From Carcharhinus amblyrhynchos (lineage: Eukaryota): a stretch of DNA of 64,000 nt. Under the pieces are notes generated by a model. It was not told the origin of the DNA. It saw only the letters and a program-made list of their open reading frames with translations, and searched no databases. Position 1 is the first letter of the stretch, and each line of letters begins with the position of its first letter. The stretch lies in NCBI GenBank assembly GCA_965287045.1, contig OZ336886.1, forward strand, positions 38,874,001 through 38,938,000. The letters run 5' to 3'. A program made the translations under genes and the position numbers. Below are positions 3,059-47,613 of this stretch, piece after piece.

Positions 3059-3351
3059 TTTTTATTGCCACAAGAAGTCACACATTAACACTGCAATGAA
3101 GTTACCATGAAAAATCCCCTAATCTACCACACTCTGGTGCCTGTTTTGGGTGCAGTGAGGGAGAATTTAACATGGCCAATGCATCTAACCAGCGTGTCGT
3201 TTGGATGGTGGGAGGAAACCAGAGCATCCAGAGGAGACCCATGCAGACATGGGGAAAACGTGCAAACTCCACACACAGTGACCCAAGCGGGAATCAAACC
3301 CAGGTCCCTGGCGCTGTGGAGCATTGATGCTAACCACTGTGCCACCATGCC
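3059..3351 (-). mobile_element. tRNA-derived SINE (HE1/V-SINE-like)
   Basis: The minus strand starts ggcatggtggcacagtggttagcatc (A-box), has a B-box-like ggtttgattccc, the central gtttgcacgttttcccc...ggtttcctccca domain and an AATAAA-type tail. Confidence 0.9.
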
Positions 3352-3354
3352 ACA

Positions 3355-3810
3355 TTTGCATTGGAATTGTGTATCATGGAATATCATGCTGTATCATAGG
3401 ATCACTAAGTCTTGACCAAGTTGTTGGTTTAAATTTTAGAGGTATTTTCAGTAATAAAACATAGAATAGGCATGGTATGGAATGGAACCTTTTGGTCAGG
3501 TCAGGAAGCTAATGACTGGCCCATAGGTCAGTCCAAATTTAAGCTTAGTAGTAAGACCTTTGGGTCAGGAGAGAACAAAATGATGAATGATCCATGAGTT
3601 ACAGTGTAATAAACTGATTGTCTGGCTTCGGTGGGCCAAGATGTTCAGGGGACTGGGCAAATCGTCAGGATGGGTAAACAAAGTGTGTGTTGTGCAATGA
3701 ACTGTGGGGATCGTTTTTGTTAAAGGTCAGATCATTCTGTGATTATTTTCTAAACTCATAATTGCAGACATACTGAATAGGGCGTAGAAAGTAAGAAGGT
3801 CAGTGCGGGA
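3355..3810 (+). repeat. Copy 1 (partial) of a ~770 bp tandem unit
   Basis: Colinear with 21573-22031. Shared strings include ttgcattg...atcatgctgtatca, aaccttttggtcagg, gatgaatgatccatgagtta, atgaactgtggggat and aattgcagacatactg. Confidence 0.9.
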
Positions 3811-6800
3811 CGAGAGGAGAGATAGACCTTATACTGCAATCGAGAGGGCGAGAGAGATAAGTGAGACGACAATAAAAAGCGAGAAGCGAGACTTCAATAA
3901 AACACGCGAAAGAGAAGGAGGCAAGACTTGAAAGAAAAGTGTCAGTTAGAGGTGATATTTGAAGAAAAGGCGCTAAAAAGAGATAGTGGGAAACATCAAT
4001 AAAAAACGTGCGCAAGAGAGGGATTCAGGAAAATGTGTGAGACGTGAGGCTTCATAAATAAATGTGAGAAATAGAGGCCATATTTGAATAAAATGGTGTC
4101 AAACAGCGATAGAGGTGAGACTTCAATAAAAAGGCGCGAGAGGGTTGGAGTGGAAACTTCAATGAAGAGGCGCGCGGAAGAGATGGTGGTGAAACTCCAA
4201 TAAAACGCGAGGGAAATGAGAGGAGGGACTTCAGTAAAGAGCTCGGACGTTCACTGAGAAGACTCAGCGGCAGTAAAAACCGCTGATTCCATCGTCCAAA
4301 AAGGGGCGAGAGTTAAAACTTCAATGAAAAGCGAGATATAAAGAGATGAGACTTCAATAAAAAGTAAGTGATAAAGGTAAGACTTCAATAAAAAGTGAGA
4401 GATAGAATTGATATTTAAATATAAAGCACGAAAGGAATAAAGGTGAGACTTGAATAAAAAGTGAGAGAGATAGAGGTGAGACGTCAATGCAAATTGTGAA
4501 AGAGGTGATATTTGAATAAAAGCGCGAAAGAGATAGTCATGAAACTTCATTAAAATTGTGAGAGAAATAGAGAAGATATTTGAAGAAAAGGAGCGAAAAA
4601 AAAAGAGGTGAGATTTGGAAAAAAGTGAGAGATACTTGAATAAAAAGCGCGATAGATGAACATGAGACTTCAAAGAAAAGGGAGATCCAGAGGTAAGAGT
4701 TCACTATAAATGCAAGAAGGAGAGATAGAGATGAGACCTTATTACAAAGTGTGAGAGAGCTAGGCAAAGGAGACTTGAATAAAAAGGGTGAGAGATACAC
4801 AAAGTGAGACTTCAGTAAAAGTGTGTGTGTGTGAGAGAGAGCTGAGACTTCATTAAATACAGAGAGACAGGTGTCATATTTGAATAAAAAGGTGGGAAAG
4901 AGAGATAGAGATGAGACTTCACTAAAAATTGTGAGAAATAGAGATGCGGGTTCAATAAAAACTGAGAGAAAGAGATAGTGGTGAGATTTAATTAAAATTT
5001 CTGAGAGATAGAGGCGATATTTGAACAGAAAGATGCGAGAGAGGTGAGACGTCCATGTGAGAGGTAGAATGTGACTTCAATAAAAAGCTCGTGAGAGAGG
5101 CGAGACGACTAAAAAGTGAGTGAGAGGTGGAGATGAGACATTCGTAGGAGATGTGAAAGAAATAGAGGTCTGACTCCACTAAAAAGGGCGAGAATAGAAA
5201 GTGCGAGAGAGATAGAGGTGCGATTTGAATAAAAAGCGCGCGAAAGAGACAGTGGCGAGACTTCAAAAAAACACAAGAGGGAGTGAGAGGAGGGACTTCA
5301 GTAAAGATCTCCGACATTCCCTCAAAGACTCAGCGGGAGTAAAAACTGTTGATTCCATTGTCCAAATAAAAAAGGCGAGAGACAAACTTCAGTAAAAAGT
5401 GAGTGAGGTAGAGGTGAGAGTTCAACAAAAAGTGTGTGAGAGATAGACAGTGGAGACATGAACAAAAAGGGCGAGAGAGACATAAAGGTGAGACCTTCAG
5501 TAAAGATTTGAGAGAGGGAGAGGTGAGACTTGAACAAAAAGTGAGATGGTAGAGATGAAACTTGAATTAAAAATATGAGAGAGTTGAAACTTCTTCAAAC
5601 ACAGATGTATTGTAGGTCATATCTGAATTTAAAAATTGGGAGATAGAGGTGAGACTCCATTAAAAACCGCACAAAAGAGTTTGAGGTGAGACCTGAATAA
5701 AACCTGAGAGAGATTTAGAGGTGAGGTTTCCTTAAAAATAGAGGTGAGATTTAATTCAAATATGTGAGAGGTAGAGGCCATATTTGAATAAAAAGATACG
5801 AAAGAGAGGTGAGACTTCAATCAAATGTTCGCGAGAGAGGTGAGACTTGTCTAAAAGGTGAGGGAGGGAAATGGAGGTGAGACATCAGTAGAAGGTGTGA
5901 GAAGGATAGAAGTCAGACTTCACTGAAAAGGGCGAGAATAAAAAGTGCGAGAGGACAAAGGTGTGATTTGAATAAAAAGCGCGCGAAAATTGAGGCTTCA
6001 ATAAAAAGCGCGCGAAACAGGGCGGTGAGACTTCAATAAAACACAAGAGGGAGTGGGGGGAGGGATTTCAGTAAAGAGCTCAGACATTCTCTCAAAAGAC
6101 TCAGCGAGACAGTTGATTCCATGGTACAAATAAAAAAGGCAAGAGAGGCATGAAACTTCAATAAAAAGTTAAAAACAAGAATAAGACATCGATAAAAAGT
6201 AAGTGATACATCTGAGACTTCAATATAAAGTGAGATGGAAAGGAGACTATATTAGAAAGAGCTCGATGTGAGACTTCAATAAAAAGCACGAGCGGAATAT
6301 AGGCGAGACTTCAATAAGTGTGAGAGACATGGAAGAAAGAATGTGAGAGATACTTGATTGAGAGCGCGAGAGATGGAGGTGAGAGTTCAGTAAAAAGTGA
6401 GATACAGAGGTAAGGCTTTTCCATAAGTACGAGAGAGGGAGATAGAGGTGAGACTTCATTACAAATATAAGAGAGGTGAGACTTCAAAAAAAGTGGGACT
6501 TCCATGTGAGAGATAGAATGAGACTTCAAAAAACTTTCGCAGAAGAGGTGAGACTTCAATGAAAACGGTGAGGAGATGCAGGTGAGACTTAAATAAAGAG
6601 AGATAGATGTGAGATGTCATTAATATTGTGAGAAATAGACGTGATAGTTGAAGAAAAGGCGCGAAAGCTATGGAGGTGAGACTTCAAAAAGCGCGCGGGA
6701 GTGAGGTGAGACTTAATTTAAAAAGTGTGTGAAAGATTGTTAGAGGAGAGACTTGAATAAAAAGGGTGAGAGACATGGAGACGAGGCTTCATTAAAAATT

Positions 6801-9800
6801 GAGACAGGCGGTATTTAAATGAAAAGGTGCGAAAGAGAGTTAGAGGTGAGACTTCAATAAAACGCTCGCGAAAGAGGTGAGACTTAATTAAAAAGTGAGA
6901 GAAGTGACAGATCGAAAAAGGTGAGAGACGGAGAGTCATTTTAAAACTCCGGCGCCGGGGGGGGGGGGGTGCGGGGGGGACGGATAGAAGTGCCATTTGA
7001 ATAAAAAACGCGCGAAAGAGGTGGCGGTGAGATTTCAATAAAACGCAAGGGGGAGTGAGAGGAGAGATTTTAGTAAAGAGCTCGGACAGTCACTCAAAAG
7101 ACCCAGCCGGACTGAAAACTGATGATTCCATTGTCCTGATAAAAAAAGAACCAGACACATGAAACTTCAGTAAAAAGCGCGCGAGTGAGATAGAGGTAAG
7201 CCTTCAATAACAAGTGTGCGTGAGAGAGATAGAGGAGATTTGAATAAAAAGGGTGAGAGAGGCATAAAGGTGAGACTTCAGTAAACGCGTGAGAGAGAGA
7301 AGTGAGAATTGAACTAAAAGTGAGATAGATTGTAGAGGTGAGACTTGAATTAAAAGTGTGTGAGAGAGAGTTGAGACTTCTTTAACACAGCGAGATAGAG
7401 ACCATATATGAATCAAAAGGTGGGAGAGATAGAAGTGAGACTTCATGAAAAAACGCGCAAAAGTGCTTGAGGTGAAACTTGAAAAAGTGTGAGAGATTTA
7501 GAAGTGAGACTGAATTAAAAATAGATAGAGGTGAGATTTAATTAAAATTTGTGAGAGATAGACGAGGTATTTGAACAGAAAGGTGTGAAAGGGACGTGAG
7601 ACTTCCATGTGAGGTAGAGTGAGACTTCAATTAAAAGCTCTCGAGAGAGGTGAGACTTGACTAAAAAGTGAGAGATAGAGGTGAGACATTAGGAGAAGGC
7701 ATGAGAGGGATAGAGGTCAGACTTCACTTAAAAAGGCGAGAATAAAAAGTGATAGAGAGAGGAATAGAGGTGTGATTTGAATAAAAAGCGCGCGAAAGGT
7801 GAGGCTTCAAGAAAAAAAGCACGCAAAACAGAGTGGTGAGACTCCAATAAAACGCTAGAGGGAGTGAGAGGAGGGACTTCAGTGAAGAACTCGGACATTC
7901 ACTCAAAAGACTCAGCGGGACTGAAAACTGTTGATTCCATTGTCGAAATAAAAAAGGCGAGAGAGATGAAACTTCAATAGAAAGTGAGAAACAGATAAGA
8001 CGTCGCTAAAAAAGTAAGTGAAGGGGGAGACTTCATTACAATGTGTGAGAGAAATAGAGGTGAGACTTGGAAACAGGTGTGAGAGATACTTGAATAAAAA
8101 GTGCGAGAAATAGATTTGAGACTTCAATAATGAGAAATACAGAGGTAAGACTTCACTATAAATGCGAGAGAGGGAGATAAAGGTGAGACTTCATTACAAA
8201 TGTGAGATAGAGGTGAGACTTGAAAAAAGGAACAGAGGTGAGACTTCCATATAAGCGATAGAATGAGACTTCAAAAAATTGCACGACAGAGATGAGACTT
8301 TAATGAAAAGAGAGGGAGATAAATAAAAAAAAGATAGAGGTGAGACTTCATTAAAATTGTGAAAATGACATTTGAAGAAAAGGGGCGAAAGCGATAGAGG
8401 CGAGATTTCATTTAAAAAATGTGTGAGAGAGATAGACAGGAGAGAGTTGAATAAAAAGAGTGAGAGACATAAAAGTGACACCAGTAAAAATTGAGATAGA
8501 GGCGATATTTAAATAAAAAGGTGCGAAAGAGAGTTGGATGTGGGACTTCAATAAAATGTTCGGGAGAGAGGTGAGACTTGGCTAAAAAGTGAGAGAGGTG
8601 ACATATCAATAAAAGGGTGCGAGAAGGAGCCTTATTTAAAGAGTGCGAGAGAAATGGAGATACGATTTGAATTAAAACACGCTCGAAAGATGAGGCTTCA
8701 ACAAAACGCAAGAGAGAGTGAGGAGGGACTTAAGTAAAGAGCTCACTCAAAAGACTCAGCGGGACCAAAAAGTGTTGATTCCATGGTCCAAATAATAAAG
8801 GGCGAGAGATGATGAAACTTCAGTAAAAAGTGAGCGAGGGCTATAGAGGTGAGACTTCAATAAAAAGAGATAGAAGGAGGAGACTTGAATAAAAAGGGTG
8901 AGAGAGAGAGACAAAGGTGAGAATTCAGTAAACGTAAGAGGGGGAGGTGAGACTTGAACAAAAAGTGAGAAGTTAGAGGTGAGACTTGAATTAAAAGTTT
9001 GACAGAGAGTTGAGACTTCTTTAACACAGATAGAGGCGATGTTTGAATAAAAAAAGGTGGAAGAGATGGAGATGGGACTTCATGAAAAAAACGCGCAAAA
9101 GAGCTTGAGGTGAAACTGAAATAACAAGTGAGAGATTTAGGGGTGAGACTGAATTAAAAATAGATAGACGTGAGATTTAATTAAAATTTGTGAGAGATAG
9201 AGACGGTATTTGAATAGAAAGGTGTGAAAGAGGGAGGTGAGACTTCCATGTGAGAGGTAGAGTGAGATTTGAATAAAAAGCTCTCGAGAGAGGTGAGACT
9301 TGACTAAAAAGTGAGAGAGGGTTGGTGAGACATCAGTAGAAGGTGTGAGAGGGATAGAGGTCAGACTTCACCAAAAGGGCGAGAATAAAAAGTGCGAGAG
9401 GGATAGAGGTGCGATTTGAATAAAAAGCGCGCGAAAGGTGAAGCTTCAAGAGAAAGCGCGCCAAAGAGAGGGTGGTGAGACTCCAACAAAACGCAAGAGG
9501 GAGTGAGAGTAGAGACTTAAGTAAAGAGCTCGGACATTCACCCAAAAGACCCAGCCGGACTGAAAACTGTTGGTCCTATAGTCCAAATAAAGACGACAGA
9601 GAGATGAAACTTCAATAAAAAGTGAGAAGCAGAGCGATTAGACGTTAATAAAAAGTGAGTGACGGAGGGGAGACTTCATTAAAAAGTGCGAGAGATGTAG
9701 AGGTAAGACTTCGAAAAAAAAGTGAGCGATACTTGAATAAAAAGCGCGAGAGTTAAGAGGTGAGACTTCAGTCAAAAGTGAGATTCCGAGGTAAGACTTC

Positions 9801-12800
9801 ACTATAAATGCGAGAGCGGAAGATAGAGGTGAGACCTCATTACCAATGTGAGGGAGCTATAGAGGTGAAACATCAAAAAAGAAAGGGAGGTAAAACTTCA
9901 CAAAAAACACGCGAGAAAAGTGAGACGTCAATGAAAAGAGTGAAGGAGATACAGGTGAGATTTCAATTAAAGAGAAATAGAGGTGAGACTTCATTAAAAT
10001 TGTGAGAAATGGGGTGCTATTTGAAGAAAAGGCGCGAAAGAGGTAGAGGTGAGACTTCAAAAAAGCGCGAGCGAGAAACTTGCATAAAAAGGGTGAGAGA
10101 GACATAGAGGTAAGACTTCAATAAGAAGTGAGAGAGATTTAGAGGTTAGACTGAATTAAAAATAGATAGAGATGAGATTTAATTAACATTTGTGAGAGAA
10201 AGGCGAGATTTGAATAGAAAGATGTGGAAGAGAGGTGAGACTTCCACGTGAGGTAGAGTGAGACTTCAATAAAAAAGCTCGCGAGAGAGATGAGACGACT
10301 AAAAAGTGAGTGAGAGATGGAGGTGAGACACCAGTAGAAGGTGTGAGAAGGATGGAGGTCAGATTAACTAAAAAGGGCGAGAATAAAAACTGCGAGAGAA
10401 AGGGGTAGAGGTGCGATTTGAATAAAAAACGCGCGAAAGAGAGTGGTGAGACTTCAATAAAACGCAAGAGGGAGTGAGAGAAAGGACTTTAGTAAGCAAC
10501 TCGGACATTCACTCAAAAGACTCAGCGGGACTGAAAACTACTGATTCCATTGTCCAAATAAAAAAAGCGAGAGAGAGAGAGAAATGAAACTTCAATAAAA
10601 AGTGAGAAACATTGATAAGATGTTGATAAAAAGTAAGTAATGGAGGGAAGGCTTCAAAAGAAAGAGTGAGAGAAATAGAGGTGAGACTTCAATAAAAGTG
10701 TGAGAGATATCGAGATGAGACTCGAAATAAAATGCGACAGATACTTGAATAAAAGCGGGAGAGATGGAAGTGAGACTTCAATAAAAAGTGAGAGATACAA
10801 AGGTAAAACTTCGCTATAAATGCGAGAGAGGGAGGTAGAGGCGAGACTTCATTACAAATGTGAAAGAGGTGAGACTTCGGTGTGAGAGATAGAGTGAGAC
10901 TTCAAAAAATCGCGCGGGAGAAGTGCGAGTTCAATGAAAAGGGTGAGGGAGATACAGGTGAGACTTAAATAGAAAGAGAGATAGATGTGAGACTTCATTA
11001 AATTGTGAGAAACACAGGTGATATTTGAAGAAAAGGCGCGAAAAAGATAGATGTGAGACTTCAAAAGGCGCACGCGGGAGAGGTAAGACTTCGTTTAAAA
11101 AGAGATTGATAGAGGAGAGACGACTAAAAAGGGTGAGCGAGATATAGAGGCGAGACTTCAGTACAAATTGAGATAGAGGCGATATTTAAATAAAATGATT
11201 CGAAAGAGAGCGCGCGGCGGGACTTCAATAAAACGCTCGCGAGAGCGGTGAGAGTTAACTAAGAAGTGAGAGAGGTGACACATCAATAGAAAGGTGCGAG
11301 AGGAGTGCGGGAGGGAGGGATAAAGGTGCGATTTGAATAACAAGTGCGAGAAAGGTAAGGCGCGCGAAAGACACAGTGGTAAGTCTTAAATAAAACGCAA
11401 GAGGAAGTGAGAGCAGGGACTTCAGTGGAGAGTTCCGACATTCATTCAAAAGATCTAGCGGGACTGAAAGCTGCTGATTACATGGTCTAAATAAAAAGGT
11501 GCGAGTGGGAGAGAGAGCTGAAACTTCAGTAAGAAGTGCGCGAGTGAAATAGGGGTGAGACTTCAATAAAGTGTGAGGGGAGTCAGAGGAGACTTGAATA
11601 AAAAGGGTGAGAGAGACATAAAGGTGAGACTTCAGTAAATGTAAGAGAGGGAGTTGAGACTTGAACAAAAAGTGAGATGGATGGTGGAGGTGAGACTTGA
11701 ATTAAAAGTGTTGTGAGAGCTGAGACTTCTTTAATACAGGAGACAGAGACCATATTTGAATACAAAGGCAAGAAAGAGAGATAGAAGTGAGACTTCATGA
11801 AAAAAACGCGCAGAAGACCTTGAAGTGAGACTTGAATAAAAAGTGTGAGAGATTTAGAGGTGAGACTGAATTAAAAATAAAGGTAAGATTTAATTAATAT
11901 TTGTGTGAGGTGAAGGCGACATTTGAATGGAAAGGCGTGGAAGAGAGGGAGACTTCCATGTGAAAGGTAGAGTGAGACTTCAATAAAAAGCTCGTGAGAG
12001 AGTTGCGACTTGACTTAAAAGTGAGAAAAAGATGGAGATGAGACACCAGTAGAAGATGTGAGAGGGATAGAGGTCAGACTTCGCTTAAAAAAGGGCGAGA
12101 ATAAAAAGTGCTAGAGAGAGCAATTTGAATAAAAAGCGCGCGAAAGGTGAGTCTTCAATAAAAAGCGCGCGGAACAGTGGTGAGACTTCAATAAAACGCT
12201 AGAGGGAGTGAGAGGAGGGACTTCAGTAAAGAGCTCGGACATTCACTGAAAAGACTCAGCGGGACTGAAAACTATTGACTCCATAGTCCGGATAAAAAAG
12301 GTGAGAGAAAGATGAAACTTCAATAGAAAGTGAGAAACAGAGCTAAGACGCCAACAAAAGGTAAGTGATAGAGGGGAGGCTTCAATAAAAAGTGCGAGAG
12401 AGATGCGACTATATTAAGAGCTTGATGTGAGACTTCAGTATAAAGTGCGTGAGAAATGCAGTTGAATCGTCAGTTAAAAAAGAGATATAGAGGTGAGACT
12501 TGGAAAAGTGAGATCTTGAATAAAAGAGGTGAGAAATAGAAGTGAGACTTCAATAAAAAGTGAGAGATACAGAGGTAAGATTTCACGATAAGTGCGAGAG
12601 AGAGATAGAGGTGAGAGATCATTACAAATGTGAGGGAAATATAGAGATGAGACTGGAAAAATAAAATAGGAGTGAGACTTCAAAAAATTGCGTGGGAGAG
12701 GTGAGACTTCAATGAAAAGAGTGAGGGAGATACAAGTGAGACTCCAATAAAAAAGAGTTAGATGTGAGACTTCAATAAAATTGTGAGTAATAGAGGTGAT

Positions 12801-15800
12801 ATTTGAAGAAAAGGCGCGAAAGGATAGATGTGAGACTTCAAAGAAGCGCGACTGAGAGATGAGACAGAGACTTGAATAAAAAGGGTAAGAGAGACATAGA
12901 GGTAAGACTTCAGTAAAAAATGAGAGAGATAGAGGGGACACTTCATCAAAATTGAGGTAAAGGCGATATTTGAAATAAAAATGTGCGAAATAGAGTTAGA
13001 GGTCTATCTCACTTCCACTAAAAGTGAGATAGACGTGAGACTTCAATTTAAAAAAATGGCTCGCGAGAGAGGTGACATTTGACTAAAAAGTGAAAGCTAG
13101 AGGTGAGATATCAATAAAAGAGGGAGAGGGATAGAGGTTGATTTGAATAAAAAGCGCGCGAAAGAGAGGGTGGAGAGACTTTAATAAACCACAAGAGGGA
13201 GTGAGAGGAGGGACCTCAGGAAAGAGCTCGGACATTCACTCAAAAGACTCAGCGGGACTGAAACCTGTTGATTACATAGTCCAGAAAAGGGTGAGAGGGA
13301 TGAAACTTCAGGAAAAAGCACGCGACAAAGATAGAGGTGGGACTTCAATAAAGAGTGTGTGCGCGAGAGATAGACGAGATTTGAATCAGAAGGGTGAGAG
13401 AGACATAAAGATGAGACTTCAGTAAATGTGAGAGAGGGAGGTGAGACTTGAACAAAAAGTGAGATGGTAGAGGTGAGACCTGAATTAAAAATGAGAGCTG
13501 AGACTTCTTTAAGACAGAGACATAAAATCCATGTTTGATTAAAAAGATGGGAAAGCGAGGTAGAGGTGAGACTTAATTAAAAGACGCGCAAAAGTGCTTG
13601 AAGTGAGGCTTGAATAAAAAGTGAGAGAGATTTAGAGGTGAGACCGAATTAAAAGTAGATTGGTGAGATTTAAGTAACATTTGTGAGAGAAAGAGGCAAT
13701 ATTCGATTAGAAAGGTGTAAAAGAGAGGTGAGACCTCCATGTGAGAGGTAGAGTGAGACTTGAATAAAAAACTCGCGAAAGAGGTGAGACTTGACTAAAA
13801 AATGAGAGATGGAGGTGAGACATCAATAGAAAGTGAGAGGGGGATAGAGATCAGACTTGACCAAAAGGACGAGAATAAAAGGTGCGAGAGAGAGGCGCGA
13901 TTTGAGTAAAAAGCGCGTGAAAGGTGAGGCTTCAAGAGAAAGCCCGCCAAAGAGAGGGTGGTGTTACTTCAATAAAACGCAAGAGGGAGTGAGAGGGGGG
14001 ACCTCAGTAAAGAGCTCGGACATTCACTCAAAAGATTCAGCGGGACTGAAAACCGTTGATTCTATAGTCCAGATAAAAAAGGCGAGAGAGAGATGAAACT
14101 TCAATAAAAAGCGAGAAACAGATAAAACGTCAATAAAAAGTAAGTGACAGAGGTGAGGCTTCAATAAAGAGAGATGGAGGTGAGACTATCTTAAAAAGAG
14201 CTTATGTGAGACTTCAATAAAAATTGCGAGAGGAATATAGATGCGACGTCAATAAAAAGTGTGGGATACAGAGGTAAGACTTGGAGAAAACAAGTGTGTG
14301 AGAGATACTTGAATAAAAAGCTCCAGATAGAAGTGAGACTTCAATAAGAAGTGAGAGATACAGAGGTATCACTTCACTATAAATGCGAGAGAGGGAAGTA
14401 GAGGTGAGAATTCATTACAAATGCGAGAGAGGGATAGATGTGAGACTTGAAAACTGAAACAAAAGTGAGACTTCAAAAAAACACGCGCGTGAGATGAGAC
14501 TTCAATGAAGAGAGCAGGGGAGATACAGGTGAGACTCCAATAAAAAAGATAGAGGGGAGACTTCATTAAAATTGTGAGAAAGGGGTAATATTTGAAGAAA
14601 AGGCGCGAAAGAGATAGAGGTGAGACATCAAAAAAGCGCGCGCGGGTGTGATGGGATAGAGAGACTTTAATGAAACGATGAGAGAGAGACAGACGGAGGT
14701 AAGACTTCAGTAAAAAAAAATGTGGGATAGAGGCGAGACTTAATCAAACTTGAGATAGGGCGATATTTGAACAAAAATGTGTGAGATTTAGAGGTGAGGC
14801 TTTCATGTGAGGTAGAGTAAGACTTCAATCAAAAGCCCGCGAGAGAGGTGAGACTTGACTAAATAGTGAAAGATTGAGGTGAGGTATCGATAAAAGGTGT
14901 AGGAGGGATAGAAGTGAGACCAATTTAAAATGTGCGAGATAGAGGGACAGGTGCGATTTGAATAAAAGGCGCGCGAAACAGGTTGGTGAGAGAAGGGACT
15001 TCAGGAAAGAACTCGGACATTCACTCAAGATCTAGCGGGGCTGAAAACTGTTGATTCCATAGTCCAAAAAAGGGCGCGCGCGCGCGAGAGAGAGAGATAG
15101 ACTTCAATAAAAAGCGCGCGAAACAGGGTGGTGTGGCTTCAATAAAACGCAAGAGGGAGTGAGAGGAGGAACTTCAGTACAGAGCTCGGACATTCCCTCA
15201 AAAGACCCAACGTAGTTGAAAGTGTTGATTTCTATAAAAAGGCGAGAGATCAGGCTTCAATAAAATGAGAGATAAGACATCAATAATAAGTGAGTGATAA
15301 AGGGGAGACTTCATTAAAACCTGTGAGAGATATAGAGGTGAGACTTGGAAAAAAGTGTGAGAGGAAGGGACCTCAGTAAAGAGCTCGGACATTCACTCAA
15401 AAGACTCAGCGGGGCTGAAAACTTGATTCCATAGTCAAGAGAGATACTTGAGTAAAAAGCTCGAGATAGAAGTGAGACTTCAATAAGAAGTGAGAGATGT
15501 AGAGGTAACACTTCACTATGAATGCGTGAGGGGAGATAGAGGTGAGAACTCATCACAAATGTGAGGGAGGGATAGATGCGGGACTTGAAAACTGAAATAG
15601 AAGTGAGACTTCAAAAAAAACACGCGCGTGAGGTGAGACTTCAATGAAGAGAGCGGGGGAGATAGTGAGACTCCAATAAAAAAGATAGAGGGGAAAATGT
15701 GAGAAAGGAGTAATATTTGAAGAAAAGGCGCGAAAGAGACAGAGGTGAGACATCAAAAAAGCGCGCGCGGGTGAGATGGAGCAGAGAGGTTTTAATTAAA

Positions 15801-18800
15801 GGATGAGAGAGAGACGGAGGTAAGACTTAAGTAAAAAAAAGTGAGATAGAAGCTAGACTTAATCATACTTGAGATAGAGCGCTATTTGAACAAAAATGTG
15901 TGAGATTTAGAGGTGAGGCTTCCATGTGAGGTGGAGTGAGACTTCAATAAAAAGCCCGCGAGAGAGGTGAGACTTGACTAAATAGTGAAAGATTGAGGTG
16001 AGGTAGCAATAAAAGGTGCAGGAGGGATAGAAGTGAGACCAATTCAAAATGTGCGAGAGAGAGGGACAGGTGCGATTTGAATAAAAGGCGCGCGAAACAG
16101 GTTGGAGAGAGGAGGGACTTCAGGAAAGAGCTCGGACATTCACTCAAAAGATCTAGCGGGGCTGAAAACTGTTGAATCCATAGTCCAAAAAAGGGCGCGC
16201 GCGCGAGAGAGAGCTAAACTTCAATAAAAAGCGCGCGAAACAGGGTGGGAGGGAGTGAGAGGAGGAACTTCAGTAAAGAGCTCGGACATTCCCTCAAAAG
16301 ACCCAGCGTAGTTGAAAGTGTTGATTTCTATAGTCCAGATAAAAAGAAGGCGAGAGAGAGATCAGACTTCAATAAAAAGAGAGATAAGACATCAATAATA
16401 AGTGAGTGATGAAGGGGAGACTTCATTAAAACCTGTGAGAGATATAGAGGTGAGACTTGGAAAAAAGTGCGTGAGAGGGAGGGACCTCAGTAAGGAGCTC
16501 GGACATTCACTCAAAAGACTCAGCGGGACTGAAAACTTGATAAACCGAGAGAAAACGTCAAAAAAAAGTAAGTGATAGAGGTGAGGCTTCAATAAAGAGA
16601 GAGATGGAGGTGAGACTATCTTAAAAAGAGCTTAATGTGAGACTTCAATAAAAATTGCGAGAGGAATATAGATGAGACGTCAATAAAAAGTGTGGGATAC
16701 AGAGGTGAGACTTGGAAAAAAAAGTGTGAGAGAGATATTTGAATAAATACCTCGAGATAGAGGTGAGACTTCAATAAGAAGTGAGAGATACAGAGGTATC
16801 ACTTCACTATAAATGCGAGAGAGGGAGACAAAGGTGAGAATTCATTACAAATATGAGGGAGGGATAGATGTGAGACTTGAAAACTGAAATAGAAGTGAGA
16901 CTTCAAAAAAACACGCGCGTGAGATGAGACTTCAATGAAGAGAGCAGGGGAGATACAGGTGAGACTCCAATAAAAAAGATAGAGGGGACACTTCATTAAA
17001 ATTATGAGAAAGGGGTAATATTTGAAGAAAAGGCGCGAAAGAGATAGAGGTGAGACATCAAAAAAGCGCGCGCGGGTGAGATGGGGCAGAGAGACTTTAA
17101 TAGAAGGATGAGAGAGACGGAGGTAAGACTTCAGTAAAAAAAAATGTGGGATAGAGGCGAGACTTAATCAAACTTGAGATAGGGCGATATTTGAACAAAA
17201 ATGTGTGAGATTTAGAGGTGAGGCTTCCATGTGAGGTAGAGTAAGACTTCAATCAAAAGCCCGCGAGAGAGGTGAGACTTGACTAAATAGTGAAAGATTG
17301 AGGTGAGGTATCGATAAAAGGTGTAGGAGGGATAGAAGTGAGACCAATTTAAAATGTGCGAGAGAGAGGGACAGGTGCGATTTGAATAAAAGGCGCGCGA
17401 AACAGGTTGGTGAGAGGAGGGACTTCAGGAAAGAACTCGGACATTCACTCAAAAGATTTAGCGGGGCTGAAAACTGTTGATTCCATAGTCCAAAAAAGGG
17501 CGTGCGCGCGCGAGAGAGAGCTAAACTTCAATAAAAAGCGCGCGAAACAAGGTGGTGTGGCTTCAATAAAACGCAAGAGGGAGTGAGAGGAGGAACTTCA
17601 GTACAGAGCTCGGACTTTCCCTCAAAAGACCCAGCGTAGTTGAAAGTGTTGATTTCTATAAAAAGGCGAGAGTGAGATGAGACTTCAATAAAAAGAGAGA
17701 TAAGACATCAATAATAAGTGAGTGATAAAGGGGAGACTTCATTAAAACCTATGAGAGATATAGAGGTGAGACTTGGAAAAAAGTGTGAAAGGAAGGGACC
17801 TCAGTAAAGAGCTCGGACATTCACTCAAAAGACTCAGCGGGGCTGAAAACTTGATTTCTTAGTCAAGAGAGATACTTGAATAAAAAGCTCGAGATAGAAG
17901 TGAGACTTCAATAAGAAGTGAAAGATACAGAGGTAACACTTCACTATGAATGCGTGAGGGGAGATAGAGGTGAGAACTCATCACAAATGTGAGGGAGGGA
18001 TAGATGTGAGACTTGAAAACTGAAATAGAAGTGAGACTTCAAAAAAAACACGCGCGTGAGGTGAGACTTCATTCAAGAGAGCGTGCGAGATAGTGAGACT
18101 CCAATAAAAAAGATAGAGGGGAAATTGTGAGAAAGGGGTAATATTTGAAGAAAAGGCGCGAAAAGATAGAGGTGAGACATCAAAAAAGCGCGCGCGGGTG
18201 AGATGGGGCAGAGAGATTTTAATTAAAAGATGAGAGAGAGACGGAAGTAAGACTTAAGTAAAAAGAAATGTGAGATAGAAGCTAGACTTAATCATACTTG
18301 AGATAGAGTGATATTTGAACAAAAATGTGTGAGATTTAGAGGTGAGGCTTCCATGTGAGGTAGAGTAAGACTTCAATCAAAAGCCCGCAAGAGAGGCGAG
18401 ACTTGACTAAATAGTGAAAGATTGAGGTGAGGTAGCGATAAAAGGTATAGGAGGGATAGAAGTGAGACCAATTTAAAATGTGCGAGAGAGAGGGACAGGT
18501 GCGATTTGAATAAAAGGCGCGCGAAACAGGTTGGTGAGAGGAGGGACTTCAGGAAAGAACTCGGACTTTCACTCAAGATCTAGCGGGGCTGAAAACTGTT
18601 GATTCCATAGTCCAAAAAAGGGCGCGCGCGCGAGAGAGTGAGATAGACTTCAATAAAAAGCGCGCGAAACAGGGTGGTGTGGCTTCAATAAAACGCAAGA
18701 GGGAGTGAGAGGAGGAACTTCAGTACAGAGCTCGGACATTCCCTCAAAAGACCCAGCGTAGTTGAAAGCGTTGATTTCTGTAGTCCAGGTAAAAAAAAGG

Positions 18801-21388
18801 CGAGAGAGAGAGATCAGACTTCAATAAAAAGAGAGATAAGACATCAATAATAAGTGAGTGATAAAGGGGAGACTTCATTAAAACATGTGAGAGATATAGA
18901 GGTGAGACTTGGAAAAAAGTGTGTGAGAGGGAGGGACCTCAGTAAAGAGCTCGGACATTCACTCAAAAGACTCAGCGGGACTGAAAACTTGATTCCATAG
19001 TCCAGATAAAAAAGGCGAGAGAGAGATGAAACTTCACTAAAAAGTGAGGAACCGAGATAAAACGTCAATAAGTGATAGAGGTGAGGCTTCAATAAAGAGA
19101 GAGATGGAGGTGAGACTATCTTAAAAAGAGCTTATGTGAGACTTCAATAAAAATTGCGAGAGGAATATAGATGAGACGTCAATAAAAAGTGTGGGATACA
19201 GAGGTGAGACTTGGAACAAAAAGTGTGAGAGAGATACTTGAATACAAAGCTCGAGATAGAAGTGAGACTTCAATAAGAAGTGAGAGATACAGAGGTAACA
19301 CCACTATAAATGCGAGAGAGGGAGATAGAGGTGAGAATTCATTACAAATGCGAGGGAGGGATAGATGTGAGACTTGAAAACTGAAATAGAAGCGAGCCTT
19401 CAAAAAAACACGCACGTGAGATGAGACTTCAATGAAGAGAGCAGGGGAGATACAGGTGAGACTCCAATAAAAAAGATGGAGGGGAGACTTCATTAAAATT
19501 GTGAGAAAGGGGTAATATTTGAAGAAAAGGCGCGAAAGAGATAGAGGTGAGACATCAAAAAAGCGCGCGCGGGTGAGATGGGGCAGAGAGACTTTAATAA
19601 AAGGATGAGAGAGAGACGGAGGTGAGATTTCAGTAAAAAAAAGTGAGATAGAGGCGAGACTTAATCAAACTTGAGATAGAGCGATATTTGAACAAAAGTG
19701 TGTGAGATTTAGAGGTGAGGCTTCCATGTGAGGTAGAGTTAGACTTCAATAAAAAGCCCGCGAGAGAGGTGAGACTTGACTAAATAGTGAAAGATTGAGG
19801 TGAGGTATCGATAAAAGGTGTAGGAGGGATAGAAGTGAGACCAATGTAAATTGTGCGAGAGAGAGGGACAGGTGCGATTTGAATAAAAGGCGCGCGAAAC
19901 AGGTTGGCGAGAGGAGGGACTTCAGGAAAGAACTCGGACGTTCACTCAAGAGACCCAGCGGGGCTGAAAACTTGATTCCATAGTCCAAAAATGGGCGCGC
20001 GCGAGAGAGGGGGAGATAAACTTCAAAAAAAGCGCGCGAAACAAGGTGGTGTGGCTTCAATAAAACGCAAGAGGGAGTGAGTGAAGGAACTTCAGTACAG
20101 AGCTCGGACATGCCCTCAAAAGACCCAGCGTAGTTGAAAATGTTGATTTCCATAGCCCAGATAAAAAAGGCGAGAGAGATGAGACTTCAATAAAAAGAGA
20201 GATAAGACGTCAATGATAAGTGAGTGATCAAGGGGTGACTTCATTAAAACGTGAGAGAAATAGAGGTGAGACTTGGAAAAGTGTGAGAGATACTTGAATA
20301 AATAGCGCAAGCAATAGAGATGAGACTTCAAAAAGAAGCAAGCGAGATAGAGATAAGTCTTCATTATAAATGTGAGAGAGGGAGATAAGGGTAAAACTTC
20401 ATTACAAATGCGAGGGAGAGATCGAGGTGAGACTTAGAAAAAAAGTAGAGGCGAGACTTAAAAAATCGCGCAAGAAAGATGAGACTTCAATAAGAAGTAA
20501 TAGAGGTGAAGCTTCTTTAAATTTGTAAGGAATTGAGAAAAAAAGCATGAAAGGAATACAGGTGACACTTCAAAAATGTGACTTGAATAAAAAAAAGAGA
20601 CAGGTGAGACTTGACTTAAAAATTGTGAGATAGAGCTGATATTTGAATAAAAAGATGCCAAAGAGAATTAGAGGTGAGACTTGACTGAAAAGTGACAGAG
20701 AAATAGAGGTGAAACATCAATGAAAGATGCGAGGGATAGAGATGAGACTTCATTAAAAAGGGCGAGAGTAAAAAATGCAAGAGATGGACAGGTGATATTG
20801 GATTAAAAAGGAGCGAAAGAGATAGAGGTGAGACTTAAAAAGAGCACGAGGGAGAGATGTGACTTGAATAACAAGTGCGAGAGAAAGGTGACACTTGAAA
20901 CATAAGAGAGATAGATGCAAGGCTTCATTAAAAATTGTGAGAGGTGATATTTGAATTAAAAGGTACAAAAAAGATATAGAAGTGAGACTCCCATGAAAAG
21001 TGAGAGAGACAGGCGAGTCATTAAAAAATTGTGACAGAGATAGAGGTGATTTGAAGAAGCAAAAGAGGTAGTGGTGACACTTGAAAAAAGCACGTGCGAG
21101 TGAGAGGTGAAACTTAATTAACTGAGTGATAGAGAGTCTTGAATAACGTAAGAGAGATAGGTGAGACTTCAATAAAAATGCGAAAGAGCAAGTGGAGGGA
21201 AAGCTCAGACATTCACTCAAAAGACTAGGCTGGACTGAAAACTGTTGATTCCATCATCCAAGTAAAGGCGAGAGTGAGAGTTGAAACTTCAGTAAAAAGT
21301 GAGGGTTCAAACTTCAACAAAAAGTGAGAAAGGCAGAGGTGAGAATTCAATAAATAGTGATAGAGAGATGAGACACTTATAAAGAGCA
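3811..21388 (+). repeat. Satellite A: purine-rich degenerate ~30-33 bp satellite (consensus ~GAGATAGAGGTGAGACTTCAATAAAAAGTGTGA) with higher-order repeats
   Basis: Very many gaggtgagactt(c/g)aa units. The landmark ctcggacattcactcaaaagactcagcgggactgaaaactgttgattcc recurs ~27 times. Identical 67 aa pseudo-ORFs lie at 14825 and 17249 (offset 2424). Confidence 0.95.
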
Positions 21389-22157
21389 GGTATTCACTCA
21401 ATCTGTCAGCCGTAAAGTGGGTCTAATAGCTTTTGATTGCAAAGTGCAAATTGCTAGTAAAAATTGTGAACAGGAGTGGTTTCCGCCAAAGATCCTCATG
21501 GGACACCTCTCCACACCTTCTGCTTTCTGTCTGGCAGGCATTGGGCAATCCATTCTGTTACTTGTCCCTGAGTTTGCATTGAAGTGATGTATTGTGGGGT
21601 ATCATGCTGTATCATGGATCATCCAGTTGTGACCAAATTGCTGGTTTAAATTCCAGAAGTATTTGCAATAAAACAAAACTTAGGGTTGACATGATAGGTA
21701 ATGTAACCTTTTGGTCAGGCCAAGAAGCTAACGATTGGCTTATAGGTCAGTTCAAATTACGTTAAGTAATATGACCTTTGAGTCAGGAGATAATAAGTTG
21801 ATGAATGATCCATGAGTTATACTGTAGTAAACTGATTTTGTCTGGCACCGTGAAGGCTAAGATGTGCAGGTAACTGGGCAAAGCATGGATGGGTAAGCAA
21901 AGTTTGTGTTGTGGAATGAACTGTGGGGATTATTTTTGTTAAAGGCCAGGTCATTCAGTGATTATTTTCTAAAAACTGTTAATTGCAGACATACTGGAGA
22001 CAACGTAGAAGACAAGAGGATCAGTGTGGGAAGAAAGCAGTGAACCCTGAGCGGAGCGGTGATGGAAACAAGATCACAATAGGGAGAGTGAGAGAGCGAA
22101 GTGAGACTTCAAAAAATCAAGAGAAAGAGAGAAGGTGAGATTATGGTAAAGGGCGCA
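21389..22157 (+). repeat. Copy 2 (complete) of the ~770 bp tandem unit
   Basis: Begins ggtattcactcaatctgtcagc. The next copy begins ggcattcattcaatgtgtcagc at 22158, giving a period of 769. Confidence 0.9.
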
Positions 22158-22558
22158 GGCATTCATTCAATGTGTCAGCATTAAAGTGAGGCTCAAAACT
22201 GTCGATTCCAAAACCAAATCATTAATATAAATCCTGAATAGGAGTGGTTCCCAGCACTGATCCAAGTGGAACATGTTTTCATACCTTCTGCTTTCTGTCT
22301 TGAGATCGGCTAGCAATCTAATCTGTTACTTGTCCACTGAAGTGATGTATCATAGTGTATTGTGGGATCACCCAGTCTTTGCCAAGTTGCTGGTTTTTAT
22401 TTTATGAGTATTTGCAATGAAAGAAAATACACCAGAATCAACATGGTAGTGAATGTAATCTTTTGGTTAAGGCCAAGAAGCTAATGACTGGCCTATGGGA
22501 CAGTTCATGGTAAGCTAAGCAATGTGACTTTAGGGTCAGGGTAGAATAAGTTGATGAA
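22158..22558 (+). repeat. Copy 3 (truncated by an RTE fragment) of the ~770 bp unit
   Basis: Matches ~21389-21805 (aggagtggtt, ccttctgctttctgtct, ggccaagaagctaa, aataagttgatgaa) and then switches to RTE sequence. Confidence 0.85.
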
Positions 22559-23335
22559 CATTCCTCCATACTTGATTATCAAGATCCAGGGTGAGGATTT
22601 GTCAATGTAGACCACATTTCATATCAAGGGAGCCCACTGTCAACAGGGGCAGACATCGATATTGAGCTCAACACTATCTTCCGTGGATCAGCAGTCTTTG
22701 ATCACCTTAGAAAATGTTTGAAGACCAGGACCTCAGACTAGCATCAAACTCATGGTCTACAAGGTGGTATCCCCCTCCTGAACAGCTCAGAGATTCAGAC
22801 CATGTGTAGCAGGCACCTCAAAAACCAGTGATGCCTCCACAAGATCCTACAAATCTATTGACAGGCTAGGTACACTAATTCAGCATTTGCGCTTAGTCAA
22901 TATTCCCAGCATCAAAGCATTGGCCACACTCAGTCAGCTCCACTGGGAAGGCTACATCATCCACATGCTTGACATGAGACACCCAAAGCAAACACTGTAC
23001 TCAAAGCTTCAACACAGCAAGCAAGCCACAGGAGGGCAGAGGAAATTTTTCAAGAACACCCCCAAAACCTCCTCAAATTTACAAAATCCCCACCGATACC
23101 TGAGAACCCTTGGCTCCAAGATGGCCTGAAGGGGAGGAAAAGCAACTGAGAAGGAGCTGAACACCTTCATCTTCATTGCCGTGAGTAAGCAGAAGCCAGG
23201 CGTCAGCAGGGAGAGGAGCACATACCAATCATTCCACTCACCTACTCCTTCAACCCTCATCTGCCTCCCCCTGTGATAGAGATTGTGGGTTATCATTGGA
23301 CTGCTCCATCCACCTGAGAACTTACTTTTGAATGT
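22559..23335 (+). mobile_element. RTE-clade LINE 3' fragment (degenerate)
   Basis: Broken frames give NVDH...KLMVYK...NIPSIKALATLSQLHWEGYIIHMLDMRHPKQTLYSKL...GGQRK and a C-terminal zinc-finger-like remnant (ctgtgatagagattgtggg...cacctgagaac). Confidence 0.85.
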
Positions 23336-23714
23336 GTAATCTGGTGTGGAGCAGTGCAAGAGAGAGGTGACATGCCCGGCTTAGAGTGGTGCAGGAAAAG
23401 GGTGGTGAACCCAGCATGCAGCAGCACAGGATGAGGATGGTGAACCCAATAGGGAGCAATGGGGAAAGGGGAACATTGAACCCCAGTGTAGAGCAGAGAG
23501 GGGTGTAGGGCAGCAAATTTGGTAGGAATCAATACCGGAACCAGAGAGCTGACTCTGTGTAGAACAATGTTTTAGGAGGAAGGTGAAACCAGTGCGAAGC
23601 AGTGTGGGATAAGGATGGCAAATTCAATGTGCAGCAGTGCAGGAGGAGAACGTTGAACCCAATGTGGAGCAGAGTGTGAGGATTGTCTTAAACCAGTGTG
23701 TTACATACTGCAGT

Positions 23715-45100: not shown

Positions 45101-45962
45101 GGAGAGCTGCAAACTCCATATAATGCAATACTGGACGTGAATGATGAACTCAGTTTCAAGTGGTTCAGTAGGAGAGCTATAAACACAGTCCAAGCAGCAC
45201 AAGAGAAGAGCGATGAAACTGGTGTGGAGCAATGCTAGAAGAATATGTAGAATCAAATATGGAGCAGCACAGGAGGAGAGATGTGGACGCGGTATGGAGC
45301 AGTGGAGAACACTATGTGGAGCAGCTTGGGAGGAGAGCAACGAAACCTGTGTGGCCCAGTGCAGGCAGAGTAAGGTGAACCTAGTCAAGTTGTGCCATGG
45401 ATGGTGAACCCTGTGGGGTTCACTGGGGGGGAGAATGATGAAATATATGTGGAGCAGCAAGGGAGGGGCGCTGTGAACCCAGTGTGGAACAGTGCTTGGG
45501 GTGGCGAACCCAGTGTAAACCAGCAACAGAAAATGCTGGAAAACCTCAGCTGGTCTGACAGCATTTATGGGAAGAGAACAGAGATAGCATTCTGTGTCTG
45601 GATGCTGTGATTTTCCAGCATTTTCTGTTTTTGTTTCAGAATCCAGCATCTGCAGGAATTTGCTTTTATCCCAGTTTAAAGCAGTGGTGTGGAACAGTCC
45701 GGGTGGGGAGCGGCAATCCCAGGGTAGAACAGCACGAGAGGAAGACGGGGAACCCATTGTGGTGCAGTGCAAAAGGAGAGGGAACCCAGTATGGAGCAGA
45801 TCAGAGGGGACAGCAGTGAATCCAGTGTGGAACAGCAACAGAAAGCAATGAACTCAGTGTGGATCAGCACATAGAGAGCAGCGAACCCAGTGTGGATCAG
45901 TGCATAGAATAAGAAGTCTGACAATACCAGGTTTAAGTCCAACCGATTTATTTGATAGTAAA

Positions 45963-46000
45963 CTCACATGCTTTCGAGGTTTGCCCCTTCGTCAGGTGAA
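45963..46000 (-). ncRNA. Minimal type I hammerhead ribozyme motif (mutated at the cleavage triplet)
   Basis: The minus strand reads ttcac-CTGACGA-a-gggg caaa cctc-GAAA-gca-t-gtgag. Confidence 0.6.
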
Positions 46001-46214
46001 TGGAGAGTACTGGCCTCAGACAGAGCATATGACAGCACAGACAGTTTACAGATTACTGATTAGAATGCGAGTCTTTACAACTGACCTGCTATTCAAGTCT
46101 TAAAGAGACTGACAATGTGAGTGGAAGGAGCATTGAGCACAGGTTAAAGAGATGTGTATTGTCTCCAGACAGTACAGTAAGTGAGGTTTTGCAAACCCAA
46201 GCAAGTCATGGGGG

Positions 46215-47210: not shown

Positions 47211-47484
47211 TTCCACACACATGAGGACGGTCTTAACAAGGATCTTGGGTTCATGTCACACTACCTGTAACCCCCATGACTTGCCTTGGTTTGCAAAACC
47301 TCACTTACTGTACTGTGTGGAGACAATACACATCTCTTTAACCTGTGCTCCATGCTCCTTCCACTCACATTGTCAGCCTCTTTAAGACTTGAATAGCAGA
47401 TCAGTTGTAAAGACTCACATTCTAATCAGTAATCTGTAAACTGTCTGTGCTGATACGTGCCCTGTCTGAGGCCAGTACTCTCCA

Positions 47485-47522
47485 TTCACCTGACGAAGAG
47501 ACAAACCTCGAAAGCTTGTGAG
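47485..47522 (+). ncRNA. Minimal type I hammerhead ribozyme motif
   Basis: ttcac-CTGACGA-a-gag acaaac ctc-GAAA-gct-t-gtgag. Stem I is ttcac/gtgag and stem III is the palindrome aagctt, as described for Penelope hammerheads. Confidence 0.7.
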
Positions 47523-47613
47523 TTTACTATCAAATAAATCGGTTGGACTTAAACCTGGTGTTGTCAGACTTCTTACTGTGTTTACCCCAGTCCAACACCG
47601 GCATCTCCACATC

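Follow-up and report, generated by a model that had tools for sequence, protein, structure and literature searches.

An old, LINE-derived complex satellite with an unusual CpG signature at two paralogous loci of Carcharhinus amblyrhynchos

Within a 64,000-nucleotide stretch of Carcharhinus amblyrhynchos DNA (hereafter the window), a purine-rich tandem array, satellite A, occupies 17.6 kb as assembled. This complex satellite is old, derives from LINE sequence, and has both an unusual CpG signature and a natural replicate on a second chromosome. Judged from sequence comparison, the array most likely expanded at its present site out of a few monomers of a putative CR1 LINE 5' leader, amid repeat scraps joined into a patchwork that is present in triplicate. 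CpG mutation in the array is not in excess, probably because the array has been unmethylated in the germ line. Retention of CpG in satellite A, unlike in the repeats that adjoin it, is what this analysis adds. The data do not require a host function, and no host genes were evident by eye in the 39 stop-to-stop frames of at least 150 aa. The features of the locus, on the chromosome designated C17, are given below in window coordinates.

3060..3352 (start approximate), minus strand: SINE, which we take to be V-SINE/HE1-like; abuts unit 1 and removes its 5' part; matches dispersed copies, e.g. at ~59470-59755
3355..3810, plus strand: unit 1, of which the dispersed-repeat X part alone remains; 79.8% identical to unit 2
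3811..21390, plus strand: satellite A, degenerate 29-37-bp GA-rich monomers of a local A-type variant; 26 landmarks; 322 core matches (at most 3 mismatches in 14)
5279..13985, plus strand: older higher-order layer, in which landmark-to-landmark segments of ~790 bp (alpha) and ~950 bp (beta) mostly alternate with a period of ~1.8 kb
7896..7950, plus strand: example landmark, a unit-start copy with the common 7-bp deletion, stopping ~17 bp inside the LINE scrap
13981..20290, plus strand: youngest layer, ~2.5 copies of a 2.45-kb higher-order repeat
21391..21593, minus strand: unit 2 start, an antisense fragment of the reverse-transcriptase (RT) region of an old CR1-type LINE, recognised by its match to 8 dispersed LINE copies and by translations
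21594..21990, plus strand: 5' ~390 bp of dispersed repeat X, found at 14 loci with 67-79% identity
22032..22159, plus strand: short linker, one satellite-B-type monomer followed by about three satellite-A-family monomers; spanned by contigs of organisms B, D and E
22160..22558, plus strand: unit 3, with a truncation point identical to that of the paralog on chromosome C9
22559..23364, strand not assigned: LINE-like fragment, presumably RTE-like; interrupts unit 3 and is common to C9
23340..64000, plus strand: satellite-B domain, 35-bp monomers mixed with LINE scraps; CpG-depleted

The block at 3355-3810 recurs at 21573-22031, as a first-pass annotation of this DNA had reported (3355-3822 against 21573-22043, 475 columns, E 1e-114), and the ~770-bp unit that it proposed does exist in three diverged copies, the third of them truncated (~22155-22558; 71% to 21386-21805) and set 769 bp from the second (21391 to 22160). 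The unit itself is a composite of repeat scraps, made up of a LINE RT scrap in antisense orientation, a portion of repeat X, a single B-type monomer and some three monomers of the A family. At the start of unit 2 the LINE scrap carries a ~29-bp deletion relative to free LINE copies, and the comparable region of the window's CR1 copy matches Pfam RVT_1 (E 9e-11); repeat X is old and measures ~630 bp elsewhere. The 5' part missing from unit 1 is retained in the C9 paralog. Pairwise, the unit copies are 73-81% alike, that is, 19-27% diverged. In a tree of the units, the unit 3 copies cluster together (bootstrap 84), and unit 1 of C17 groups with unit 2 of C17 rather than the unit 1 copies pairing across chromosomes (support for the wider group 71); the order of the duplications is left unsettled. 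The unit 2 copies of C17 and C9 share derived letters (84.7% over 236 bp).

Satellite A (~3811-21390; 70% purine) lies directly after unit copy 1 and, as expected of a complex satellite, repeats head-to-tail over many kb. Its repeating unit is 29-37 bp rather than the ~125 bp originally supposed, and no 125-, 185- or 770-bp periodicity was found. The array grew by several steps of 1.8- and 2.45-kb higher-order duplication. Best partners in the older layer are 83-89% alike in the segment matrix, with self-BLAST offsets of 1734 and 1846, and the youngest layer reaches 91.5% by BLAST with gaps included, or 96-97% on aligned columns (3-4% diverged). Across all segments best-partner likeness spans 83-97% and many pairs are unalignable, which is not the profile of a young, homogeneous array. 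The diverged parts are unlikely to be artefacts of assembly, since contigs of other organisms are collinear over them, a judgement that does not extend to the copy number of the 2.45-kb layer.

Two local marks distinguish this array. Landmarks recur at 26 positions between 4212 and 21175, and the proposal that they derive from the start of a unit was borne out in an alignment of 31 landmarks with 3 unit starts: all 26, together with four more, carry one common deletion relative to the unit starts, and the same deletion is present in a 130-bp landmark fragment on C35. Landmark and unit start both match LINE RT copies, the unit starts running on into LINE sequence; a tree of the landmarks separates few of them. 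Beyond C17 and C9, lower-bound searches found no landmark-bearing arrays. The other mark is the base after AATAAA, which is A in 252/322 monomers on C17 and 103/113 on C9, and mostly G in 8/8 profiled arrays that lack the unit; the A-type variant is local to the two paralogs. Little weight is given to a profile score of A- versus G-type, which is biased toward A for degenerate monomers and from which the A-type call for the linker monomers is taken.

Unit copy 2 is trailed, as first described, by a short linker only (22032-22159), which measures 128 bp here and 121 bp on C9, with 89 of 120 aligned columns matching between the two. Both ends of satellite A align with both ends of this linker, in which there is no landmark relic. 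Scored against the array, the linker reaches 50 (dinucleotide-shuffle mean 28.8) and the unit start 32, neither value being attained in 100 shuffles. The similarity claimed in the first-pass annotation is greater than chance. The shuffle test is not specific to satellite A, however, since an unrelated array on contig C305 gives the linker a still higher score (60; 0/200 shuffles).

The idea of a satellite 'caught at birth' had to be abandoned, given the divergence of the unit copies and a layout common to the paralog and to organisms up to 8% diverged. On C9 the same layout encloses a 5.5-kb array. The stretch 21160-23364 is collinear with it at 72.5%; the arrays themselves (5.5 vs 17.6 kb) are not collinear internally, their segments matching at background level only. 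Comparison of the flanks and ends of the pair, which bears on whether a Helitron or DNA transposon carried the composite, turned up neither homologous flanks nor common ends: the flanks share common repeats only, the right ends differ and the left end on C17 is cut by the SINE. Orthologous stretches differ at 21/1028 letters in organism B, 41/1458 in D and 59/740 in E; organism D is collinear over array positions 4217-5420 (31 differences in 1206), and in runs assigned to other organisms (2-8% diverged) linker and array ends are retained. Both the inter-chromosomal duplication and the separation from organisms as much as 8% diverged came after this layout was established. In organism E a 'skip' of 1067 bp was rejected as a deletion, its short side being 84 letters of homologous repeat and the skipped part being covered by another E contig.

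The monomer family is not confined to this setting. It occurs at 18 other loci that lack the 770-bp unit, often directly before CR1 LINE sequence. The first-pass annotation had named such a distribution as grounds for rejecting its reading, and for the monomer those grounds apply, whereas for the local variant and the landmark they do not. On C14, C24 and C8 the monomers lead through a short tether into a UTR and then ORF1, and on C20 a single monomer precedes ORF1. The monomer used by itself retrieved 15 loci, and the CR1 protein matches up to 450 bp downstream of them are sense in 7 cases and antisense in none, those upstream sense in 2 and antisense in 3; two more loci are ORF1-like downstream by eye only, and 6/15 are without CR1 downstream. 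The reverse search finds monomers at 3/25 CR1 copies located via ORF1 and at 1/19 located via the UTR, that one being the query itself. Tandem monomers of variable number (1 to ~75, each 26-37 bp) thus stand directly 5' of UTR and ORF1 in a minority of CR1 copies. Two further probes were discarded: the tether motif failed to isolate the CR1 subfamily (3/4 matches unrelated), and the C24 junction mostly returned C24's own array. Among the other arrays, flanks share common SINE and LINE sequence only. At the present locus an antisense RT scrap follows the monomers and no sense LINE body does. A literature search in a collection with few subscription journals returned nothing on this satellite or on a CR1 5' minisatellite of sharks.

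How, then, might the array have arisen? The monomer family would have reached the locus by retrotransposition, and tandem duplication, to judge from shared changes, would have produced units 1-3 with a short linker at each junction. Slippage or unequal exchange may then have lengthened the first linker, which on a single occasion would have taken in ~55 bp from the beginning of the following unit, giving the landmark with its 7-bp deletion. The whole composite would have been copied between C17 and C9 after this capture, and the two arrays would have grown separately by unequal crossing-over, their CpGs presumably retained through germline hypomethylation. Growth in place is favoured by the agreement of array and linker at their ends, by a monomer variant restricted to the two paralogs, and by the landmarks, 30/30 of which are one-deletion derivatives of the unit start. 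The part of the first-pass annotation that finds support is growth in place from a linker-like seed, and the part that does not is runaway amplification of linker plus unit start; its unexpanded ancestral state surviving next door is plausible as a retained early state, the direction of change resting on parsimony. Against our account stand the lack of monomers in most CR1 copies located via ORF1 or the UTR, the 6/15 monomer loci without CR1 downstream, the antisense orientation of the LINE scrap here, the failure of the unit 1 copies to pair across chromosomes, the somewhat faster mutation of isolated CpGs than of non-CpG sites in satellite A, and the reliance on parsimony to choose expansion over collapse at the second junction.

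That runaway amplification, in which a 125-bp linker and unit start gave birth to the motif on the spot, draws on the same match of linker and unit start above shuffles, the same agreement of ends, and the restriction of landmark-bearing arrays and monomer variant to C17 and C9. It is nevertheless refuted as to age and monomer origin, and as a whole is scarcely credible: there is no 125- or 185-bp period, the family exists at 18 unit-less loci, the units are 19-27% diverged and even the youngest layer is 3-4% diverged, and the layout is shared with the paralog and with organisms up to 8% diverged. Equally hard to credit is the insertion or copying in of a ready-made array, for example by a transposon, with its likeness to the linker reflecting family ancestry only. 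In its favour, members of the family are dispersed in company with CR1, the C305 array is as good a match for the linker as satellite A is, and C35 holds a 130-bp landmark fragment; yet the landmark is built from this unit's own start, lower-bound searches returned no further landmark-bearing array, and the flanks of other arrays have just common SINE and LINE sequence in common. Rather less remote, though still improbable, is a collapse, in which long arrays once filled both junctions and the short linker is a deletion remnant between monomers instead of an ancestral state. An end-to-end match of array and linker fits collapse and expansion equally, and no outgroup with two short junctions was seen. 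But the linker is near equal in length on C17 and C9, alignable between them and bridged in organisms B, D and E, and because it is common to all of these any collapse must predate them; it lacks a landmark relic, and a 770-bp tandem duplication would be the simpler event.

The CpG signature sets satellite A apart from its surroundings. CpG observed/expected (o/e) values are 0.90 (satellite A, C17) and 1.07, against 0.21-0.31 in neighbouring C17 DNA, and every 1-kb bin from 4001 to 21000 lies between 0.76 and 1.09. Transitions were counted in a majority-polarised test, which counts losses rather than gains and superseded an unpolarised pairwise version. In satellite A they affect 35/662 CpG and 216/4011 non-CpG sites, a ratio of 0.98 (0.82, 1.07 and 1.09 in three repeat families on C17, the C9 copies being too diverged for the count), and in satellite B 164/1106 and 402/11537, a ratio of 4.3 (3.8- and 6.0-fold by family). 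As controls, CR1 shows an excess of just 1.75-fold and the unit has too few CpGs. An o/e of 0.9-1.1 with no excess of CpG mutation suggests that satellite A has long been hypomethylated in the germ line, a state read here from its mutational record. The signal might instead reflect biased gene conversion, slippage of (CG)n or selection on protein-binding motifs, an explanation that we consider unlikely but the most serious of those weighed here. Runs of (CG)2 or more contain 218/534 of the CpGs and mutate least (0.032), and GCGCGAAA, presumably an E2F-like motif, occurs 30 times against 4 expected, in repeat copies that are not independent. Against it, the test counts losses and not gains, isolated CpGs mutate at 0.079 against 0.054 at non-CpG sites, an excess of at most ~1.5-fold, and satellite B shows its marked excess despite being tandem and homogenised too.

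Satellite B extends well beyond the window, to about C17:39,077,600 (~200 kb in total), and a DNA search placed its arrays on at least 9 other contigs; a search with an exact 23-letter satellite-B pattern gave no matches. It is conceivable, if doubtful, that CR1 5'-leader (promoter-type) monomers, multiplied by the hundreds, make up a giant germline-unmethylated island determined by its sequence and long kept at both paralogous loci. Such an island would head a domain of 50-200 kb, oriented on a single strand and composed of repeat and LINE scraps, and would act as its promoter or chromatin boundary, for instance if the domain were a source of small RNAs or resembled a centromere. Because the two satellites adjoin yet differ so sharply in CpG mutation, one can test at this locus whether sequence (motifs of the LINE leader) or position determines germline hypomethylation; without that test, the locus is an ordinary, old and probably neutral repeat. 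It also preserves the full path from LINE 5' repeat to multi-kb higher-order satellite, comprising seed, captured junction marker and two separately grown arrays, and younger expansions of the monomer family elsewhere in the genome allow comparison.

Chicken CR1-derived satellites (the HinfI repeat and those of Cen2, 3, 4, 7 and 11; PMC9659126, PMC6947457) are likewise tandem repeats made from CR1 parts, partial ORF2 included; their units contain the CR1 3' UTR and ORF2, whereas the bulk monomer of satellite A matches a CR1 5'-end repeat, only the ~55-bp antisense RT relic recurs and the array is diverged. The 5'-UTR monomer promoters of mouse L1Md (PMC6454616) share the variable number of tandem monomers at a LINE 5' end, but here the clade is CR1, the monomers are 26-37 bp, their promoter role is putative and no sense LINE body stands behind the array. 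Tandem repeats carried inside transposable elements have been described as 'seeds' that are dispersed and give rise to satellite arrays, one example being PisTR-A, derived from the Ogre 3' UTR (PMC12692304, PMC9659126), and here too a short mobile-element repeat spread before long arrays formed at some loci; the seeds treated in those sources are mostly Helitrons, MITEs or LTR 3' UTRs, as opposed to a LINE 5' end with two paralogous, separately grown arrays. Mobile elements of cartilaginous fish are reported as heavily methylated in somatic tissue (PMC5437953). In apes, peri/centromeric satellites have been measured as hypomethylated in the germ line, older sequence being methylated and CpG-poor (bioRxiv 10.64898/2026.06.15.732472); satellite A similarly appears as a CpG reservoir within a CpG-poor genome, with the differences that its evidence is a mutational record, that the array is old and that at the adjoining satellite B the protection ends sharply.

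We consider it likely that satellite A, the GA-rich array between the first two of three diverged copies of a ~770-bp unit (units 1-3) on contig C17, is an old array that grew in place from CR1-leader monomers, retained its CpG sites and is probably unmethylated in the germline; no published description of it was found in the literature searched. In this assembly of 2.92 Gb, in which the window is C17:38,874,001-38,938,000 and all genome-wide search counts are lower bounds, the block at 3355-3810 does recur at ~21573, as the first-pass annotation had noticed (79.8% identity between 3355-3822 and 21573-22043), and is joined by a truncated third copy ending at 22558, with a period of 769 bp from unit 2 to unit 3 and a linker of 128 bp. 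Satellite A itself extends over ~3811-21390, carries 26 landmarks (a recurrent ~55-bp motif) and has a period of 29-37 bp; no periodicity of 125, 185 or 770 bp was found in it, which counts against the earlier idea that ~125 bp of linker plus the unit start had been amplified as a repeat. Similarity of linker and unit start to satellite A does exceed that of shuffled sequence (0/100 shuffles reach either score), yet an unrelated array on contig C305 gives the linker an even better score.

The 770-bp unit is a patchwork of older repeats, since it opens with ~200 bp of antisense LINE scrap from a CR1-type reverse-transcriptase region (matching 8/8 dispersed LINE loci examined), continues for ~390 bp as the 5' part of repeat X, an old dispersed element of ~630 bp, and includes a linker with one monomer of satellite-B type and about three of the genome-wide A family to which satellite A belongs. 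Some 29 bp of free LINE copies are missing from the unit copies, and the region comparable to the LINE scrap in the CR1 copy at 2380-2830 matches Pfam RVT_1. Repeat X occurs at 14 loci (L007-L020) with 67-79% identity, and 65-80% between copies; no monomer cluster was seen at these 14.

An origin in place, as first proposed, is supported by three observations. Satellite A is a distinct local monomer variant: AATAAA is followed by A in 252/322 monomers on C17 and 103/113 at a paralogous locus on contig C9, and mostly by G in all eight unit-less arrays profiled. Each end of the array aligns with the corresponding end of the linker. Finally, the landmark is indeed a derivative of the unit start and arose once, because a single 7-bp deletion relative to three aligned unit starts is common to 30/30 array landmarks and one 130-bp fragment on contig C35, and the unit starts retain LINE-like letters at that site and run on into LINE sequence. 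The C35 fragment (L055, C35:3,741,960-3,742,090; 82-85%) is isolated: neither an array nor the unit surrounds it. The short linker is a plausible survival of the unexpanded ancestral state, a linker that never expanded being preferred to one that collapsed on grounds of parsimony.

The paralogous locus keeps the order of parts found on C17:

C9, ~52,223,400 down to ~52,172,500, minus strand: unit 1, satellite A (5.5 kb, 4 landmarks), unit 2, 121-bp linker, unit 3, satellite-B domain

Its unit 3 is cut at the same place as that of C17, and every pair of unit copies shows 73-81% identity. Triplication of the unit most likely preceded the C9/C17 duplication, as the sequences suggest, because units 2 share derived letters across the two chromosomes (84.7% over 236 bp) and units 3 cluster in the unit tree (bootstrap 84); units 1 are not paired, and the tree leaves part of the event order loose. 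Most growth of the two arrays was separate, since similarity between C9 and C17 segments does not rise above background (0.06-0.18 of the maximal score). A ~50-bp CR1 3'-end piece is inserted in the C9 array (L021 ~7119-7169, reversed strand; 98% to another copy).

The description of satellite A as "caught at birth" did not survive tests for a newborn satellite: it is a mature array, grown in steps. Its older layer is a ~1.8-kb two-segment repeat with best partners at 83-89%, and its younger layer one of 2.45 kb at 96-97%. In a comparison that took in 5 of 22 listed runs from other organisms, the linker is spanned by contigs from organisms B, D and E (21/1028, 41/1458 and 59/740 differences, respectively), the unit-1/array junction is present in B, D, E and G, and in organism D the stretch 4217-5420 is collinear, showing 31 differences in 1206; divergence among unit copies is several times that of the organisms compared.

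The monomer family was found at 15 loci by monomer alone, one recent duplicate being entered once, and at three more through CR1 ORF1. It is thus widespread without the 770-bp unit (18 loci), but the eight unit-less arrays profiled are not of the A type. The unit was not detected in the stretches tested, the three ORF1-found loci being checked against the genome-wide unit match list only. On C14, C24 and C8 a short tether, UTR and ORF1 come after the monomers, and on C20 ORF1 comes directly after them. Within 450 bp downstream of the 15 monomer-found loci, CR1 matches were sense at seven and antisense at none, two more were ORF1-like by eye and none was seen at the remaining six; upstream, two were sense and three antisense. 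Against this association, the majority of ORF1-family CR1 copies have no monomers (22/25 loci in one search, 18/19 in another). The best reading is that some CR1 elements, a minority, carry the monomer as a 5'-leader repeat, which was presumably spread by retrotransposition. This seed resembles L1Md-type 5' monomers (PMC6454616), and satellite A works like known TE-seeded satellites (PMC9659126, PMC6947457, PMC12692304). A much better case of a satellite caught at birth is the young, homogeneous 26-bp array of ~75 copies at the 5' end of a CR1 copy (L189, C24:38,220,331-38,222,369), which has longer family-type monomers at both edges. At C305:5708-7660 (L053) a 34-bp family monomer is repeated 58 times with 95% identity and adjoins, back to back, a 19-bp satellite of the opposite strand. 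Loci at C1:2.71 Mb and C1:3.45 Mb share 99.6% identity across the 1.4 kb that was compared and reflect either very recent duplication or duplicated sequence in the assembly.

A further signal, absent from the first-pass annotation, lies in CpG content. CpG observed/expected is 0.90 in satellite A on C17 and 1.07 on C9; elsewhere on C17 (flanks, units and satellite B) it is 0.21-0.31, the units of C9 have 0.53-0.55, and six unit-less arrays range from 0.11 to 0.64. With the majority letter among aligned copies taken as the starting state, CpG transitions relative to the non-CpG rate were 0.82, 1.07 and 1.09 in three satellite-A families, 6.0 and 3.8 in two satellite-B families and 1.75 in CR1 copies (pooled, 0.98 for satellite A and 4.3 for satellite B), with p-values that overstate certainty because the aligned copies are related. 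Deamination of methylcytosine leads to CpG loss, and satellite A has no excess of CpG transitions, so the direct reading of these sequences would be long-term germline hypomethylation; rival means by which its CpGs may have been kept are gene conversion, slippage or selection. Ape satellites are hypomethylated in sperm and older sequence is methylated and CpG-poor, according to a preprint (bioRxiv 10.64898/2026.06.15.732472), and heavy methylation of mobile elements is reported for somatic tissue of the elephant shark (PMC5437953). It seems rather unlikely that satellite A, if it is such a CR1-leader-derived, germline-unmethylated island, also acts as a promoter or chromatin boundary for the adjoining repeat domain.

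That domain, of 35-bp satellite-B monomers, occupies C17 ~38,897,000-39,077,600 (window 23340 onward), ~180 kb on a single strand throughout, and is layered: macro-repeats of 2.2, 4.5 and 6.7 kb at 85-98% form its core, and diverged edges at ~70-80% enclose them; its C9 counterpart spans ~44 kb. Satellite B is also a dispersed minisatellite family (C6:50.445-50.450, C4:89.27, C1:28.41, C12:38.62 and 45.10, and C3:134.65 Mb); inspection by eye showed no flank shared among its loci, and its monomer may loosely resemble monomer A. Window 45910-47575 holds what we take, by its motifs, to be a Penelope-like element, with a 346-aa frame at 46215-47255 on the minus strand and 367-bp copies in inverted orientation at 94%; the C9 satellite-B domain contains similar copies.
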